Shown: positions 52,328 through 63,127 of the stretch, in pieces
How positions within the stretch are numbered: the first letter of the stretch is position 1
Layout of the letters: every line of letters begins with the position of its first letter
DNA from: Candidatus Obscuribacterales bacterium
GTDB lineage: Bacteria; Cyanobacteriota; Vampirovibrionia; Obscuribacterales; Obscuribacteraceae
Assembly (NCBI GenBank): GCA_965228855.1
Contig: CBDDIJ010000005.1
Span: 800,001 to 864,000 of the forward strand
Direction: 5' to 3'
DNA length: 64,000 nt
Program-made: the position numbers and the translations under genes
Notes under the pieces: generated by a model
What the model was told of the DNA's origin: nothing
What the model saw: only the letters and a program-made list of their open reading frames with translations
Database searches by the model: none

Positions 52328-52472
52328 TTTTGGCTACGAGGCAATGACGGAATCTGCGAAATCCGGCAATGTGTCGTAGACAACGTCTTGCCTGGAATCG
52401 ACTTGATCGAGTAAAGCATTGCTGTGCAAGCCTTTCCGGGCGAGATGGGCATGACGACATATAGTAGCCAAA
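52328..52472. repeat. Diverged third copy of the roughly 155-bp intergenic repeat family
   Basis: Shares ordered blocks TTTTGGCWACGAGGC, TAGACAA, GCCTTT and GGCAYGACGACATATAGTAG with the copies at 60.7-62.3 kb. Confidence 0.7.
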
Positions 52473-54695: not shown

Positions 54696-57600
54696 ATGCA
54701 AATTTGCGACGTGCTTGCAAAGCAAGGAGCCGGATTGTTCATGAAGTCAAGATTAGAAGAACGCGGAAACTCGAGGTCACATCTAGGCAGCGGCAAGGAT
54801 GCGCTGCAGCTGGCGCGCACGCTAGCTCTGGCGACTGCACTGTCGTTCATCGTGCAACCACTGACGGTACCGGTTTTTGCCCAAACAAAATCGACGAAGG
54901 ACGTCAGCAAAATTTCATTTCGCCTGTTAGCTCAGACGAAGTCAGATTCCGAAGACGCTGATGCTGACGAAGCTAAGAAGGACGCGGACAAGTCTAAAAA
55001 AGACGCGGATAAAGCCAAGAAGGAAGCGGATAAGAAGGCAAAGGAAACAGCGAAAAAAGCTGCAGACGAAGCTAAGAAAGCGGCTAATGATGCGAAAAAA
55101 GCGGCAGATGAAGCCAAGAAGGCCAAAGCTAAAAAAGATGACAAAGTAACTAAAGCAGATAAGGCATCAGACAAGGACACGAAAAAAGCGGAAGAGAAAA
55201 AGGCTGAAGAAGAGCCCGCCAAGGAAGCAGCAGCAAAGGCGAAAAAGAAAAGTTGGTTTGGTGGCAAAGGCGCTGAAAAACCGGTCGAAAGCGGAGAAGT
55301 AACCGAGCCGACCGTTTCCGTCGAGAAAAAGGCAGTTCCCGTCAAACCAGCTACTAATGCAGCGAAAGCCGCATCAGACGCAGCCGCCAAGTCGAACCCA
55401 AAAGCATCGACAAAGCCCACCGCTCCCAACGCAGCGAAGCCGGCAAGCGTGGTGACACCAACAGAGACCACAGCTGACGCCCCGCTAGAAAAGCCGGTTC
55501 TTTTGCCGGACAAAGCACTCGTCAGCGTGCTTGAGGACATTTCAAAATCTCTTTCCGACGTCAATAGCGACTCCGGCGTTGAGACTGCAGACGAAAAGGT
55601 TATCGTCGGTATTGCAAAGCAGGTTCTCGACAAAGCAATTGAATCGAGTGAAACACAACACGGAAGAATTCTCGCTCCCGAGCACAGCTCGGCAGCAAAA
55701 AATTCGATGACAACAGAAGCCTGGGCTTCAGGAGATATCGCAATCTCCGACAAGCTGCGCGGTTCGGTCGCAACGGTTTGGGGCAAGCGTATAAATGGAT
55801 CTTTGCATGTCACCATAGCTGGTGAATGCAACGACAAAGTTTTATCAAACGGCGAAAAAGTCGGCGAGTTTATCGTGGTGATCAAAGGACGGTCACCAGT
55901 CAAGAGCGGCTTCGATATTCAGACTCAATCGGACGTTTCATACTGGATCGGCACGCTGAGCAACGTCACGGTCGACAATGCGGTTCTTCGATTGAAAGAT
56001 CAAGAGAGCGACGAAGAGAACGCTGAAAAAGCTCCGGCGGAAAAACCGGCTGAGACCAAAGGCGAAGTAAAAAAAAAGTCCGTAGTAGTTCTTGAGGCGA
56101 TTCTAACCAGACGGGGACTGGAATATCTTCAGGCCCTGGCGCGCTACGAACATCAACAACAAACCCTGATCGCTCTGCAAGCAGCAGAGGCGACTTTGAC
56201 CGACGCGGACGATGACACCATGGATGATGCCGACGCGCGCTCATCCGGTGACGAGGTTAAACCGTCCAAATCCTCAAAAACAGACGATGACGAAGACGAG
56301 ACGGCTCAGTCCGACTCGGACGACGATGAATCCGTTGCAAGCCGCTCCAAAGCGGACAGTGATGACGAGAAGATCTCACGACGATCCAAGTCAGAAAACG
56401 ATGACGATAAGAGCGCAAGACGCTCTAAATCGGATGATGAAGATGTTGATGATGACGAGAAGGTCGCAAAACGCTCGAAGTCAGCGGCTGAAGACGAAGG
56501 CAGCAAGAGTCGCTCGAAGTCGGATGATGGCGATGAAAACGATGGAGACAAAGCCAAAACCGGCAAAATAGCAAGTACCAAAACGCAAGATAAAGCCAAG
56601 ACTGCTGATTCCGAGAAAACCTCTGCAACCGGCGCCCGAAACGATAAAGACAAGGCACCCAAAACGCCTGACGATAGGAACAAAACAGCGCGCACCAGGG
56701 ATGATGACGACTTCAGCCCGGGTCGCGTAGCGTTTGCGCAGAAAACCGACGAAGACTCGAAACCGATATCACAAAGTCCCGCGACCAAAGCGGTCGATTC
56801 TGCATGGCGCGACGATTGGTCTAAAGACGGCGGAAGTGAATCGCGCAAGTTGACGACAGTTCAGACCTCCGTCCCGTCGACAGTCTCTGAGACAAAGATT
56901 GCCAGTTCGCAAATCGTCACTCCGACGACGTCCGCTGCAACGCATTCAACAAACACGCCATCATTGACCAGAATTTCGATGGCGCCACCATCACCAGCCT
57001 CCGCTACAGGCTTCAACAGAGCCTGGGAAAGTCCAGCTGTGAATACGGCTCCGCATGCACCCAGTTTAGATGCCAGTCTGTTGATTCCAGAACGAGCAAT
57101 TGCCGGGCAGTTTCTTACGGTAGTCGTCCAAACCAAAGATCATCAACCGGAGCGAGCGGTAGAACTGAGCTTCAACGGTGCAACACTCGCCACCGATATG
57201 AATGGACAAGTATCATATATGGTGCCGGACGACATGCCACCAGGTCATACTCTGCACATCGGTCTAGCGGAGCGCCCGGAGCTCAACCCGCGCGTGGTCG
57301 ATATTCTCCAACCTCTCGATGACTCAAGAGGTCAGAAGTCTCCGCGGATAGATCGCGTTTCACAAGTTGTAGCCGCAGATGGCGTTCTCGTTGTCGACGG
57401 ACATGATTTCGATGGTTTCGCGGAGCGCAACCGGCTGGTTATAGACAACGAACACCCAGCCAAAGTGATCGCTGCGTCACCCGTTCAGCTGCGGGTTCTC
57501 GTACCTTCGAAACTTACACCAGGCACGCACTCGGTCACTATAAACAGTACGGATCTCCGAAGCGCACCGGCAAAGTTTGATTTCGTGAAAGCTGAAATCG

Positions 57601-57836
57601 AACAACAAGATCTGAGAAAAACCAAAGGCGTCCTCAGTAAAATCACGGTTAGGGTGCAAGGAACAAAACAGCCGATCGCAGTGCGTGTTATAAACAAAAC
57701 GCCTGATATAATCAAATTCTCCAGAGGAGATAATCTTCTCGTCACCACATCCGGTGGCGCAGACAACTCCTATATCGTCGGCGTTAAACAGTTAAAGAAA
57801 GGCGACTACAAAGTCGAGGCATCCCCGGAAATTTAG
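54696..57836 (+). CDS. Large exported low-complexity protein with C-terminal IPT/TIG-like Ig domain
   Basis: Signal ending VFA, K/A-rich and D/S/K-rich tracts, PRIDRVS...VDGHDF...ASPVQLRVLVP; start uncertain. Confidence 0.65.
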   Translation: MQICDVLAKQGAGLFMKSRLEERGNSRSHLGSGKDALQLARTLALATALSFIVQPLTVPVFAQTKSTKDVSKISFRLLAQTKSDSEDADADEAKKDADKSKKDADKAKKEADKKAKETAKKAADEAKKAANDAKKAADEAKKAKAKKDDKVTKADKASDKDTKKAEEKKAEEEPAKEAAAKAKKKSWFGGKGAEKPVESGEVTEPTVSVEKKAVPVKPATNAAKAASDAAAKSNPKASTKPTAPNAAKPASVVTPTETTADAPLEKPVLLPDKALVSVLEDISKSLSDVNSDSGVETADEKVIVGIAKQVLDKAIESSETQHGRILAPEHSSAAKNSMTTEAWASGDIAISDKLRGSVATVWGKRINGSLHVTIAGECNDKVLSNGEKVGEFIVVIKGRSPVKSGFDIQTQSDVSYWIGTLSNVTVDNAVLRLKDQESDEENAEKAPAEKPAETKGEVKKKSVVVLEAILTRRGLEYLQALARYEHQQQTLIALQAAEATLTDADDDTMDDADARSSGDEVKPSKSSKTDDDEDETAQSDSDDDESVASRSKADSDDEKISRRSKSENDDDKSARRSKSDDEDVDDDEKVAKRSKSAAEDEGSKSRSKSDDGDENDGDKAKTGKIASTKTQDKAKTADSEKTSATGARNDKDKAPKTPDDRNKTARTRDDDDFSPGRVAFAQKTDEDSKPISQSPATKAVDSAWRDDWSKDGGSESRKLTTVQTSVPSTVSETKIASSQIVTPTTSAATHSTNTPSLTRISMAPPSPASATGFNRAWESPAVNTAPHAPSLDASLLIPERAIAGQFLTVVVQTKDHQPERAVELSFNGATLATDMNGQVSYMVPDDMPPGHTLHIGLAERPELNPRVVDILQPLDDSRGQKSPRIDRVSQVVAADGVLVVDGHDFDGFAERNRLVIDNEHPAKVIAASPVQLRVLVPSKLTPGTHSVTINSTDLRSAPAKFDFVKAEIEQQDLRKTKGVLSKITVRVQGTKQPIAVRVINKTPDIIKFSRGDNLLVTTSGGADNSYIVGVKQLKKGDYKVEASPEI

Positions 57837-60086: not shown

Positions 60087-60692
60087 TTAACGCGCGCGTT
60101 TCGCTTGTTCCGCCGCAAAAAGAACCAACTCCAACAGCGATGACGCGAGACGTTCGCGTCCCAGCGGCATCGAGTATTTACCGTTCAGAATCTCCTGAGA
60201 GATCATGAAGTTCACCAGGGCACCATGGATGATGCGCGCAACCGCTTCAGGATCCGAGAAGTTTAGATTTGGACTTTCGCGTATGTAATGCGCGAGACTC
60301 TCGATTCCCGGGCGCACGAGCTTTGTCAGGTACATGTCGGCCAACTCCGGAAATCGCCCCGACTCAGCGATTATCATGCGAATCATACCAACGTATTCAG
60401 GGTCATCCATGCGTTGCAATGCTATCTGAGTCATCGTTCGAAAAAACGCGGGCGGTTCAAGTTCCATCAACTCGGCAGTCATTCCGGCCAGCACAAATCG
60501 CTCCATGAGCCGGTCCACGAGCGCCGCAAACAAAGTTTCTTTGTCCTTGAAGTACGTATAGACCGTCTGCTTCGCGACACCACCCTCGGCGGCAATCACG
60601 TCCATATTCGCAGCGTAACCGTCTCGGAGGAAAGCACGCAACGCCCCCTCTAAAATCTTCTCGCGCTTCTTGGCTTGACGTTCTTCGGTCAT
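60087..60692 (-). CDS. TetR/AcrR-family transcriptional regulator
   Basis: KREKILEGA..AF...GY..MDVIAAEGGVAKQTVYTYFKDKETLF. Confidence 0.94.
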   Translation of the reverse strand: MTEERQAKKREKILEGALRAFLRDGYAANMDVIAAEGGVAKQTVYTYFKDKETLFAALVDRLMERFVLAGMTAELMELEPPAFFRTMTQIALQRMDDPEYVGMIRMIIAESGRFPELADMYLTKLVRPGIESLAHYIRESPNLNFSDPEAVARIIHGALVNFMISQEILNGKYSMPLGRERLASSLLELVLFAAEQAKRAR

Positions 60693-60747: not shown

Positions 60748-60902
60748 TTTTGGCAACGAGGCGTTGCCGGATTTTCGGAAATGCGTCATAGCCAGATAGA
60801 CAAGCCGGGAAATTTAATAGGCGGCGAAGGGCACTGAGCCACGAAACCCTGATTCAGTGGGCCTTTGGGGAGAAGCTTGGCACGCCGGCATATAGTAGGA
60901 AG
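60748..60902. repeat. Intact copy A of the 155-bp repeat (empty IS target site)
   Basis: 12 mismatches in 155 nt versus 60913-60951 joined to 62217-62332. Confidence 0.92.
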
Positions 60903-60964
60903 GTTCACTGGCTTTTGGCAACGAGGCGTTGCCGGATTTTCGGAAAAGCGTTGTACGTTAGAGA

Positions 60965-61205
60965 TTGACAGCAGACCCAATCAATTGACACCAGGTCCTG
61001 CTGTCGGCAAGGCTATCCGAGGACGCGAGGATAGAGAAACGGAAGAAACCAGGAAAAAGCGTATGACCGCGAAGTCAGGCTATGAGGTTTGGACTTCCGT
61101 TTCTGTCTTGTCCTCTGAGGCTGAACACTATCAGATGCAAATCCTAGAACGATTTAGCATGCGTACAAGGCTCGCCCTGACAAGATTCTATCCGCGTCCT
61201 GTGTA
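60965..61205 (+). ncRNA. IS110 bridge RNA (5' hairpin, target-binding loop, donor-binding loop); ends approximate
   Basis: Stems 60967-60974/60998-61005, 61035-61045/61094-61104 and 61106-61112/61179-61185; loop segments match the target and donor sequences. Confidence 0.88.
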
Positions 61206-61233
61206 GGTTGGCAAGTCTAAATGGAGGCGCATC

Positions 61234-62199
61234 GTGATATCACTTGGGATAGACATCTCTAAAGAGACTGTGGATTGCTATCTGCTCTCGGAACGAGGGC
61301 GGAAGTTGCACGCTGACAACTCTGACAGCGGATTTCGGCGAATTGAGAAGTGGCTGAATCAGCACACCGAAAGCGAAGTACAAATTTGCATGGAGGCCAC
61401 TGGAAAGCTCTGGGAGCCACTCGCAGAATACTTCTGCGACAAAGGTTTTGCCGTCAGCGTCGTCAATCCTGTTCAGATCAAAAACTTTGGCAAAAGCCTG
61501 TTGAAGCGTTCAAAGACGGACGCAATTGATGCCGAGGTAATCGCACAGTTTTGCAAACTGATTCAACCGAAGACCTGGACGCCCCTCCCGGACGTGGTCC
61601 GGAAGATTCGCAACATTGAGCGTCACATTGATGCGCTCAAGACCGACCGAACCAGAACCGTGAATCGTACCGAGTCCGGTCGGCTCGACGAACCTGTGAG
61701 TATCTCGCTTCAGCGGCAAATCGAATTCATCAACAATGAGATTTTGCTGCTGGAACAGGCTCGAGACCTCTTGATCAAGTCCGAACCGCAATTTCAGAAC
61801 GATCTCGCCTTACTGCAAACCATCCCTGGAGTCGGTTTGATCTCGGCACTCACGTTTCTCACGGAAATTTCCGGCTTGGATTCCTTCGAGTCGTTGAGAG
61901 AAGTCGAGAGCTACTGCGGCTTGACTCCGGAATTGCGCGAGTCTGGAACTTCTGTTCGAGGGCGTCCGAAGATGTCTAAGAAAGGCTGCAAGCGCCTCCG
62001 GAAAGTTTTCTACATGGCGTCTCTGAGCGCAGTTCGATCAAACCCTGCCATTCAAAAATTCGCGACAAAGTTGGCAGAGAAGTGCAAACCAAGGAAAGTC
62101 ATCTTGTGCGCCGCCATGCGCAAGCTACTTCGCATCATGATGGCGATCTACAGGACAAAGACACCATTTAATCCCAATCATCTAAGCGTTCATTGTTGA
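61234..62199 (+). CDS. IS110-family DEDD recombinase/transposase, apparently intact
   Basis: GIDISK, MEATG, KTDAIDA (DEDD); TIPGVG; RESGTS (catalytic Ser region); A.MRKL; GGAGG RBS. Confidence 0.96.
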   Translation: MISLGIDISKETVDCYLLSERGRKLHADNSDSGFRRIEKWLNQHTESEVQICMEATGKLWEPLAEYFCDKGFAVSVVNPVQIKNFGKSLLKRSKTDAIDAEVIAQFCKLIQPKTWTPLPDVVRKIRNIERHIDALKTDRTRTVNRTESGRLDEPVSISLQRQIEFINNEILLLEQARDLLIKSEPQFQNDLALLQTIPGVGLISALTFLTEISGLDSFESLREVESYCGLTPELRESGTSVRGRPKMSKKGCKRLRKVFYMASLSAVRSNPAIQKFATKLAEKCKPRKVILCAAMRKLLRIMMAIYRTKTPFNPNHLSVHC

Positions 62200-62374
62200 C
62201 AGCGAACACACTACCTCATAGCCAGATAGACAAGTCGGGAAATTTAGCAGGCGCCGAAGTGTACTGAGCCACGAAACCCTGATTCAGTGGGACTTTTCGG
62301 AGAAGCTTGGCACGACGACATATAGTAGGAAGTCTGAGAGAAGAAAGCCGGCAGGCGGCTTTCCATCGCGCGAC

Positions 62375-63127
62375 TTAGAACGTCGAGCGCATCTTGAACA
62401 GATCGGAGAATGTTTCCCAGATGACTGAGAACTTGCCGCCCGAGGCGCCCTGCGTCAATCTCGGCAGGTGGTCGATCGGAATTTCGATTACTTTGAAGCC
62501 GGCACGCTCTGCTCTGATGCAAAGTTCAGCATCGACGAACGGAGTGTACGAGCGCAAAGTTACTTTGTCGAGAATGGCTTTGCGGAAGAGTTTGATCGAA
62601 TTCACATCTTTATGGCGGTGTCCGTAGAGGACGCGCAGCATCAAGTTATAAACTGCGGATTGGAGCTTGCGGCGCGGCGGATCGTTTCGGTTTACTCTCC
62701 AACCGATGACGAAATCGTGGGTCTTAAGCCCTTCCGCCATAGCGATCAATTCTTTCGGAGCGTACTGATAATCGCCCGGAAGCGAGAATACAAATTCTTT
62801 GGTGCCGGCATGATAGAGTTCGTGAATGGTGGCACCGAACCCTTTATTCACCGGGTGGTTGATCAGGCGAACATGCGGATTGGTGCGGCATTTCGCTTCA
62901 ATCTTTTCAAGCGTTTTATCGCGACTACCATCATTGCAAACAACGATCTCAAAATCCTCGCAGATTTCAGACAACAGCGTGGAGCCGTCATCGATCAGGC
63001 GACCGATGGTTTCCTCGTCGTTGTACGCCGGGATGATGAGCGAAACAGAACTGAGTTGAATCAGTCCGTTTCCGTTAGCTGATAGAACCGGATTTTGCTG
63101 CGACTTCATAGGATTGTGTACCGGCAT
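62375..63127 (-). CDS. Family 2 glycosyltransferase (polyprenol-phosphate type)
   Basis: SLIIPAYND, NDGSRD, HPVNKGFG; true start probably slightly downstream. Confidence 0.9.
   Translation of the reverse strand: MPVHNPMKSQQNPVLSANGNGLIQLSSVSLIIPAYNDEETIGRLIDDGSTLLSEICEDFEIVVCNDGSRDKTLEKIEAKCRTNPHVRLINHPVNKGFGATIHELYHAGTKEFVFSLPGDYQYAPKELIAMAEGLKTHDFVIGWRVNRNDPPRRKLQSAVYNLMLRVLYGHRHKDVNSIKLFRKAILDKVTLRSYTPFVDAELCIRAERAGFKVIEIPIDHLPRLTQGASGGKFSVIWETFSDLFKMRSTF

Follow-up and report, generated by a model that had tools for sequence, protein, structure and literature searches.

An intergenic palindromic repeat clustered around the replication origin of an Obscuribacterales bacterium, and the IS110 elements with predicted bridge RNAs aimed at it

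IS110 elements in the genome of an Obscuribacterales bacterium carry a predicted bridge RNA that is programmed against a lineage-specific intergenic repeat, a proposal made originally from a single locus and now supported by the covariation of guides with sites and by the location of all the IS110 copies inside the repeat. The repeat itself is read here, with moderate confidence, as a protein-bound composite DNA site with a polar point of breakage or opening, which would mark the origin domain of the chromosome. The window, i.e. the whole stretch of 64,000 nucleotides that was analysed, corresponds to G000:C5:800001-864000, where G000 is the source genome (8.2 Mb in six contigs, 95% complete), whose gene positions are those of our own gene calls (6187 genes). 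The comparison genome, G043, which is 91% complete, and a third population are sisters of G000 that share repeat positions with it, all of them uncultured Obscuribacterales.

The IS110 elements and the sites that they occupy

The features of the window are as follows, with the strand where one was assigned.

52329-52384: third core of the same family, within the window, unlinked to copies A and B
60748-60902: copy A, in tandem with copy B at a period of 165 bp
60749-60804: core A, an intact 56-bp imperfect dyad (PWM census, alignment of 70 cores)
60805-60890, plus strand: arm A, a variable spacer of 86 bp in which A-tract and T-tract positions are weakly conserved
60891-60898, plus strand: TATAGTAG, the distal motif of unit A, directed outward from the core
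60913-60951 and 62216-62332: copy B, split by the IS110 element
60914-60951: left 38 bp of core B, up to and including the left target and the target core GT (60950-60951)
60952-62216, plus strand: IS-a, an IS110 element (IS621-like) of 1265 bp with four copies in the genome
61000-61190, plus strand: predicted bridge RNA, ends approximate, fold z -2.23, guides in internal loops
61054-61062, 61079-61086, 61125-61132 and 61163-61169: guides LTG, RTG, LDG and RDG of the predicted bridge RNA
61234-62199, plus strand: IS110 recombinase, 321 aa
62196-62201, plus strand: TTGACA, a candidate -35 box in the right end of the IS, read from the sequence
62217-62234: core B, right 18 bp, beginning with the right target CATAGC
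62235-62328, plus strand: arm B (86 bp) with TATAGTAG at 62321-62328

The 165-bp period and the identity of ~92% that had been claimed for the tandem copies are borne out by alignment (38/39 and 106/117 identical positions, about 92-93%), as is the observation that copy B carries the IS and matches the left target guide (LTG) at 8/8 positions, against 7/8 for copy A. Core A consists of two 17-bp boxes, with their centres 33 bp apart, around a 16-bp centre, and the duplication junction leading to copy B lies just past TATAGTAG of unit A. The core pattern has two matches in the window (0.00 expected), and the window locus holds one copy of the repeat in G043 and three in a third population. At the same place, tetR is inverted relative to the glycosyltransferase gene in comparison with G046 and G049 (window 60087-60692 and 62375-63127; L062, L063, L067), and the repeat is located at the inversion junction; a 1046-aa low-complexity protein encoded at 54696-57836 has no Pfam match.

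The recombinase of IS-a matches the Pfam families DEDD_Tnp_IS110 and Transposase_20 and scores above the cut-off of NCBIfam transpos_IS110, i.e. it has the DEDD RuvC-like and Tnp domains by which IS110 membership is recognized. The predicted RNA at the left end of the element likewise has the IS110 organization, with target and donor guides that match the flanks and the ends; the LTG of the window copy reads AAAAAGCGT (61054-61062). At the right end the donor core CT occupies 62215-62216, and the window copy carries a T>C at 62214, in the left-donor sequence, where an independent short-read contig has the C as well. In a circular form of the IS, the TTGACA box would sit 17 bp from TACGTT (60954-60959), an arrangement like that described for IS621 in the accessible text of PMC11208158. 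The circle joint did not occur in three contig sets, and assembled contigs cannot show its absence.

Seven IS110 recombinases are encoded in G000, four by IS-a and three by a second element, IS-b (52% protein identity between the two), and all seven copies, together with the only copy of G043 (1/1), lie within the repeat, which agrees with its proposed role as a landing site. IS-a is found at the GT before CATAGC, inside the 56-bp core, to which its bridge RNA would direct it; the insertion point of IS-b is the CT in the outer TTTGTCTACG, close to where the core ends. The orthologous sites in G043 are empty at the three IS-b loci, at the IS-a locus at C2:987.6 kb and at the window locus, and G043 has one IS-a of its own in a different core; the insertions lack target duplications, as those of IS110 do. 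At 5/5 IS-a sites the junctions show the target core GT on the left and the donor core CT on the right, which is expected of top-strand cuts placed after the core. An AG at the end of the right guide pairs with the incoming donor core, and the bases that follow this AG pair with positions 6-7 of the partner DNA, as is described in the consulted portion of PMC11208158.

The left guide reads AAAAAGCGT in three IS-a copies, AAAATGCGT in the IS-a copy located at the AAATTGCGT site, and AAATTGCGT in the G043 copy, which is itself located at a CAATTGCGT site. These guide changes account for 1 of the 2 and 2 of the 10 differences of those copies from the common IS-a sequence, and the G043 variant was seen again in an independent sequencing run. 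Guides covary with sites in five IS-a copies, three IS-b copies and relatives, and, because the left guide follows the site in near-identical copies, the programming claim holds; one alignment row (L015), whose coordinates were wrong, was left out. In relatives without the repeat the guides are unrelated (bridge-like matches occur in 11 of 104 family genomes), so that two IS lineages were retargeted to one repeat, IS-a and IS-b having aimed their guide RNAs at it independently. Related IS110s in such repeat-less relatives (L221-L229) have left guides such as ATGAAACAT and combine an AT target core with a CT donor core, which makes a core mismatch usual in this clade. By its sequence, IS-a appears to be a new member of the IS621-like group that works as published.

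The single mismatch of copy A had been offered as an explanation of the site choice, and this stands only in part. The full right match TCATAGC is found in 21 of the 422 intact core strands, none of which matches the common left guide at 8/8, whereas three (copy A among them) match at 7/8, seven at 6/8, seven at 5/8 and four at 4/8. Copy B is the sole site with 8/8 on the left and 7/7 on the right, and it is filled; but sites with one or two left mismatches are filled as well, the four filled IS-a sites having the full right match throughout and left matches of 8/8, 7/8, 6/8 and 6/8. Four strands with 8/8 left and 6/7 right are all empty, and one guide variant elsewhere in the genome matches copy A at 8/8. 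These small numbers suggest a strict requirement for a full match of the right guide, and a left guide that is permissive of one or two mismatches and changes along with the repeat variants.

Anatomy, constraint and distribution of the repeat

Using an iterated matrix, we found 211 cores of 56 bp in 161 clusters of G000, against 0 in the reversed-genome control, so the further copies that had been foreseen do exist; the 211 include the three IS-b sites, and the four cores split by IS-a are extra. Core length is fixed (193 of 195 first-round cores are ungapped), and none of the cores lies inside a called gene of G000. By a relaxed pattern an outward TATAGTAG is present on 216 of the 422 core sides, and exact motifs point away from the core in 185 cases and towards it in 4; this inverted 8-bp motif flanks 52 of the 211 cores on both sides, 112 on one side and 47 on none. 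Its distance from the core is 64-66, 75-78, 86-90 or 97-100 bp (about 65, 76, 88 and 99), and these four bands, which cover 16 of 48 positions, take in 154 of 158 exact motifs; the bands were chosen from the G000 data, and the same peaks recur in G043 and the third population. The best band period, 11.3-11.5 bp, is longer than that of B-DNA, core-to-core periods of 10.4 and 12.1 bp fit about equally well, and a 12-bp block separating two founder subfamilies could account for the 76 and 88 classes.

Weak fixed-position features of the arm alone locate the motif in 196 of 216 arms (a figure that is not cross-validated), while the mean identity of the arms is 39%, arm homology extends between only six cluster pairs, and the nearest non-tandem core has a median identity of 84%. 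The original prediction of a conserved structured unit of 155 nt, which corresponds to the core plus one arm, had to be given up, as the family shares only the 56-bp core and short arm motifs. Cores occupy 55 of 142 convergent gaps, vs 63 of 523 tandem and 12 of 142 divergent ones (own gene calls), and 153 of the 216 motif-bearing arms face the 3' end of a gene; in its high copy number, intergenic location and preference for convergent and tandem gaps, the repeat resembles the REPs. There is also an armless core subtype (outer GTCAAT/ATTGAC), arranged in 73-bp tandem arrays that reach six copies or more and have a linker containing CTAGA (G043:C3:39547, 59904, 64198-65746 and 412986-413351; G000:C2:552315 and 652727).

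The cores are under constraint. In the 33 orthologous pairs between G000 and G043 (of 121 single cores, 33 had a partner in the compared part of G043), the cores diverge by 0.039 per site, vs 0.125 at four-fold sites and 0.11-0.12 in the flanks, and hence evolve three times slower than synonymous sites; for 16 pairs with the third population the values are 0.068 for the cores vs 0.16-0.18 for the flanks. The motif is nearly invariant between orthologues, and its distance from the core is kept to within 2 bp in all 83 arms, and for the third population in 48 of 49. Within the compared range, 66 of 67 G000 clusters have a counterpart in G043, and 67 of 75 G043 clusters have one in G000, three of the other eight being outside the mapped range. 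On these comparisons, the family has a considerable age relative to that of these species; its members keep their positions and vary only in the number of tandem copies.

A stretch of C2, from 70 to 1150 kb, holds 175 of the 211 copies and 132 of the 161 clusters, with 122 clusters per Mb vs 4.2 elsewhere. The only dnaA gene lies within it at C2:793 kb, at the GC-skew minimum, and the clusters extend from about -730 to +350 kb around it, a confinement to the origin region of the kind that characterizes the parS, ram and ricS class; G043 shows the same clustering around dnaA and the same right edge. The core pattern has 142 sites in G000, 118 in G043 and a single one in G049, on a contig of 2.4 kb, and the remaining 398 of the 401 genomes of the class have none; a profile search agrees (3 of 107 genomes), and exact counts of TATAGTAG are 292 and 204, vs 42-58 in six congeners. 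No cores were found in 255 kb around dnaA of three congeners, and the repeat is missing from 5 of 7 congeners and from nearly all relatives. A metagenome scan gave 117 loci, of which 105 align to G000 at a median identity of about 92%, several unrelated ones scoring as chance matches do, and the search of viral contigs returned 0 matches. One core-like sequence (L107, score 39) lies on an AT-rich metagenome contig without similarity to G000.

The origin domain (G000:C2:70000-1150000; L001-L020, L069-L088) also contains 277 genes with a GC3 of at least 72% among native genes of ~54%, and this high-GC3 class is almost absent outside the domain. The 117 high-GC3 genes that were scanned include many peptidases, hydrolases and unknown proteins, as well as gene sets with 4-5 paralogues; the ribosomal and RNA polymerase genes lie outside the domain. 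High-GC3 orthologues exist in G045, G046 and G047, and G037 has some high-GC3 genes close to dnaA. Since the class is already present in relatives without the repeat, the clustering of the repeat may reflect where insertions survive, and the idea that the repeats cause the high GC3 was rejected because the class predates them. The first 60 kb of C2 (C2:1-60000) and contig C4, with a GC content of 60-66%, are probably of foreign origin or misjoined; the G043 sequence past C2:61 kb runs instead into the end of C5.

The outer end of the arm is a polar edge. Between consecutive motifs, homology extends upstream over almost the whole unit and ends at the motif, leaving a linker that is mostly 5-12 nt long. 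Of 67 pairs, 56 have their duplication boundary at most 20 nt from the motif end, where about 20 would be expected; 9 of the initial 76 pairs were left out for too little homology, and the exceptions are mostly inner units of longer arrays. Orthologous single arms change faster than neutral at -15..-12, with a divergence of 0.26-0.30, and at +8..+21, and 27 single-copy arms show 16 indels at +10..+19, as small duplications and deletions; since the motif-less sides are also rich in indels, part of the contrast is due to suppression inside the arms. Among the 42 indels of at least 250 bp, 11 have a junction at -5..+40 from a motif end, vs 2.9% of random intergenic positions; most of these 11 are copy-number changes and three, ending 7-20 nt past the motif, are on the scale of genes, but most of the large interspecies indels (31 of 42) are away from motif ends. 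Nicking, local opening of the DNA or stalling of a fork at the motif would each leave such an edge. An integron-like cassette array was rejected, as the synteny with G043 is kept over the compared stretches of C3 (640 kb) and C4 (66 kb), with no inversion between cores, and as so many indels lie away from the motifs. A retron-like RT beside a repeat pair (L016:2048-3217) has its C-terminal part deleted in G043, up to 14-17 nt past the motif.

Explanations of the repeat

On the reading as a composite DNA site, a putative symmetric protein complex on the dyad would bend or wrap the next 65-100 bp and engage the motif on one helical face, and nicking, opening or stalling at the outer edge of the motif would then give rise to the local copies and the fast-changing flank. 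The IS would exploit the repeats because they are many, intergenic and redundant. It is possible, although we hold it doubtful, that the sites are kept because they organise the origin domain, through its topology or its anchoring, in a lineage that yielded no chromosomal ParB; the repeat cannot meet a general need of segregation, given its absence from most congeners, and the congeners without ParB are also without the repeat. Somewhat less likely again is the fullest form of the proposal, namely an undescribed chromosomal element in which a dyad-bound complex with helically phased wrapping cuts or opens the DNA past TATAGTAG at about 160 origin-side places, copies itself locally, with occasional gene capture or deletion at the edge, and marks a macrodomain rich in high-GC3 genes.

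Several candidate partners were sought, one protein family at a time, and none of the families covered supplied one. RAYT/IS200 TnpA (PF01797, Y1_Tnp) has 0 matches in G000 and G043 and is present in 3 of 8 genus genomes, and neither IS701 or IS4-type transposases (DDE_5 and DDE_Tnp_1 searched) nor a serine resolvase was found in G000 or G043, IS701 having become a candidate through the consensus of its ends. Chromosomal ParB_N is likewise missing from G000 and G043, with one ParB-like domain on the atypical contig C4; ParB was found in 0 of 4 congeners, and no parS with fewer than three mismatches was seen apart from scattered weak matches. A regular expression for the HUH motif, run without a positive control, matched 0 of 6187 proteins. 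An NtrC-like regulator without the sigma-54 contact region (C2:1.713 Mb; L238:10001-11209) is rearranged and frameshifted in G043, where the retron-like RT is truncated, and as both genes are broken there, both were rejected as required partners. A protelomerase site, suggested by the length of 56 bp, was rejected because the dyad centre is non-complementary. In G046 (L069-L074), a different, classical-looking GTAG-tagged palindrome occupies several intergenic gaps, and that genome has a weak Y1_Tnp match.

The repeat could instead be a relic or a slow non-autonomous mobile element (REPIN-, MITE- or rolling-circle-like), with CTACTATA...TATAGTAG as its ends or nick sites and the dyad as the enzyme site; the mobiliser would have been lost or would be of another family, and the origin bias would be one of insertion or of survival. 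This is unlikely in our view, though it accommodates the narrow distribution among genomes, the preference for convergent gaps (shared with REPs in the accessible part of PMC3733652), the 52 cores with inverted motifs on both sides, the one fixed and one variable duplication end, the gene-scale indels ending shortly past the motif, and the 84 bp between the nick and binding sites of pMV158 as given in the available text of PMC1851628. It sits badly with the 52 two-armed elements, which show no target duplication (50 share 0-1 base; the fast-changing flank could have erased old duplications), with the divergence between non-tandem copies, with the near-complete sharing of clusters with G043, with strong constraint but no recent spread, and with the lack of Y1_Tnp, DDE_5, DDE_Tnp_1 and resolvase matches in both genomes. 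The MITE reading in particular fails on the missing target duplication, the 39% identity of the interior and the lack of a DDE_5/DDE_Tnp_1 partner. An improbable alternative takes the repeats for activator-dependent promoters, in which TATAGT would be the -10 box, the G that follows it the discriminator, the dyad a helically phased upstream enhancer and the variable flank the start region. TATAGT does resemble a sigma-70 -10 box, 27 of 53 solo motifs are intergenic, the genome has six group 1/2 sigma-like genes by motif, and the two 17-bp dyads 33 bp apart resemble NtrC enhancers; but most motif arms face the end of a gene, no -35 or extended -10 signal accompanies the motif, and the sole NtrC-like gene common to G000 and G043 is the one broken in G043. 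Sigma-54 (RpoN) is missing from all five genomes searched (0/5), and no -24/-12 box was found.

That the repeats are a family of RNA structures or of single-stranded DNA hairpins, acting as terminators, stabilisers or small RNAs, is very improbable and already largely refuted, although the dyad can fold, shows a slight excess of pairing and lies after stop codons. What had been described as a structured repeat is so only to the extent that both hairpins, and the difference AAGG/CCTT vs AAGT/ACTT, are readable in copies A and B; copy A folds with z values of only -1.46 (plus strand) and -0.79 (minus strand) vs shuffles, i.e. above -1.5, and the helices, including the longer hairpin within arm A, are not conserved. 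Over 70 cores the long hairpin pairs in 73.4% of cells vs 69.1% after shuffling (0 of 500 shuffles), with 27% of the cells unpaired; this excess is real but small, and subtypes or templated repair of the palindromes could give it. The small hairpin is imperfect in both orthologues and, at 60.2% vs 62.8% in shuffled columns, pairs below expectation. Dyad complementarity is near the prediction from column frequencies, the strongest couplings are between adjacent bases, orthologous core changes are one-sided in 68 cases vs two-sided in 2 (also 53 vs 4), and no covarying helix was detected across 203 arms. The supposedly compensatory pair is mismatched (AAGG/ACTT) in both orthologues, so that it is not a change from a paired ancestor, and A and B each gained pairing at the same arm position by different changes; these gains could reflect selection for pairing, yet the 203 arms are without such a helix. 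Rfam gave no match over copy A and one chance match outside the repeat, and with no arm covariation the ncRNA reading falls. A structure kept by compensatory change, as in REPs, was not found beyond the small excess in the long hairpin.

Comparison with known systems

Insertion of IS110 elements into intergenic palindromes is already known, and the accessible text of PMC11208160 and PMC11208158 describes the IS621 bridge RNA as targeting E. coli REP. IS-a is like IS621 in its domains, its left-end bridge RNA with four guides, its near-IS621 donor, its junctions and its intergenic palindrome target; it is unlike IS621 in the GT target vs CT donor core at every IS-a site, in having a sister element aimed at a second position of the same repeat, in the natural stepwise guide changes among 99% identical copies, and in that the target is not REP. 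The guide series, the core mismatch and the two retargetings thus offer testable rules of bridge-RNA specificity. A further IS110 comparison is ISPpu10, which needs a target stem-loop according to the consulted part of bioRxiv 10.64898/2026.03.19.712850, while no conserved target stem-loop was found here.

Our literature search, which covered few subscription journals, returned no relevant description of the repeat, and its anatomy (a fixed dyad, a phased motif, a polar duplication edge, selection at the DNA level and restriction to an origin megabase) fits no tested family. The reference descriptions of GTAG/CGTC REPs, BIMEs and REPINs, as far as the available portions of PMC3733652 and PMC3390384 go, share with it hundreds of intergenic palindromes that are lineage-restricted, clustered, uneven, located in convergent or tandem gaps and used by IS110. 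The original REP-like reading nevertheless does not survive, since the dyad has 56 bp with a 26-bp arm where REPs have 20-40 bp and stems of 5-13 bp, GTAG is 65-100 bp distant rather than abutting the stem, CGTC is inside the paired part, and neither covariation nor a RAYT was found, although CGTC families also lack a cognate RAYT (PMC3733652); the about 30-fold enrichment in one origin-proximal megabase is a further difference from REP.

Asymmetric confinement of DNA sites near the origin is a feature of RacA-ram in B. subtilis and RicO-ricS in S. aureus in the accessible text of PMC4914108 and bioRxiv 10.64898/2026.03.06.710092. The ram sites span -412 to +200 kb there, vs about -730 to +350 kb here, and are palindromic and clustered, and the ricS sites are intergenic, as here; however, those systems have 9-25 short sites, vs about 160 clusters of 150-250-bp composite sites here, their available descriptions contain no counterpart to the phased distal motif and the duplication hot spot, and a cognate protein is known only there. 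If a protein were found for the present repeat, it would represent a novel means of marking or remodelling an origin domain, in a group without detected chromosomal ParB.

The pMV158 origin, in the consulted portion of PMC1851628, has a similar nick-like motif (TACTACG/AC vs CTACTATA) at 84 bp from its binding region vs 76-88 bp 5' here, but differs in its direct repeats instead of a dyad, in that the motif here has no hairpin, is chromosomal and multicopy, has its duplication boundary 5' of the motif rather than inside it, and has no Rep protein found with it. Strong gyrase sites and BIME-2, as far as the accessible text of PMC6379681 describes them, share the symmetric centre, the periodic A/T flanks and the position at the ends of transcription units, but have a degenerate 130-bp GC pattern with central cleavage, vs invariant bases and a variable point 75-120 bp from the core here. 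On this comparison, the repeat resembles a BIME as a palindrome that is abundant, intergenic, used by IS110 and probably bound by protein, and it resembles ram or ricS in its confinement to the origin region.
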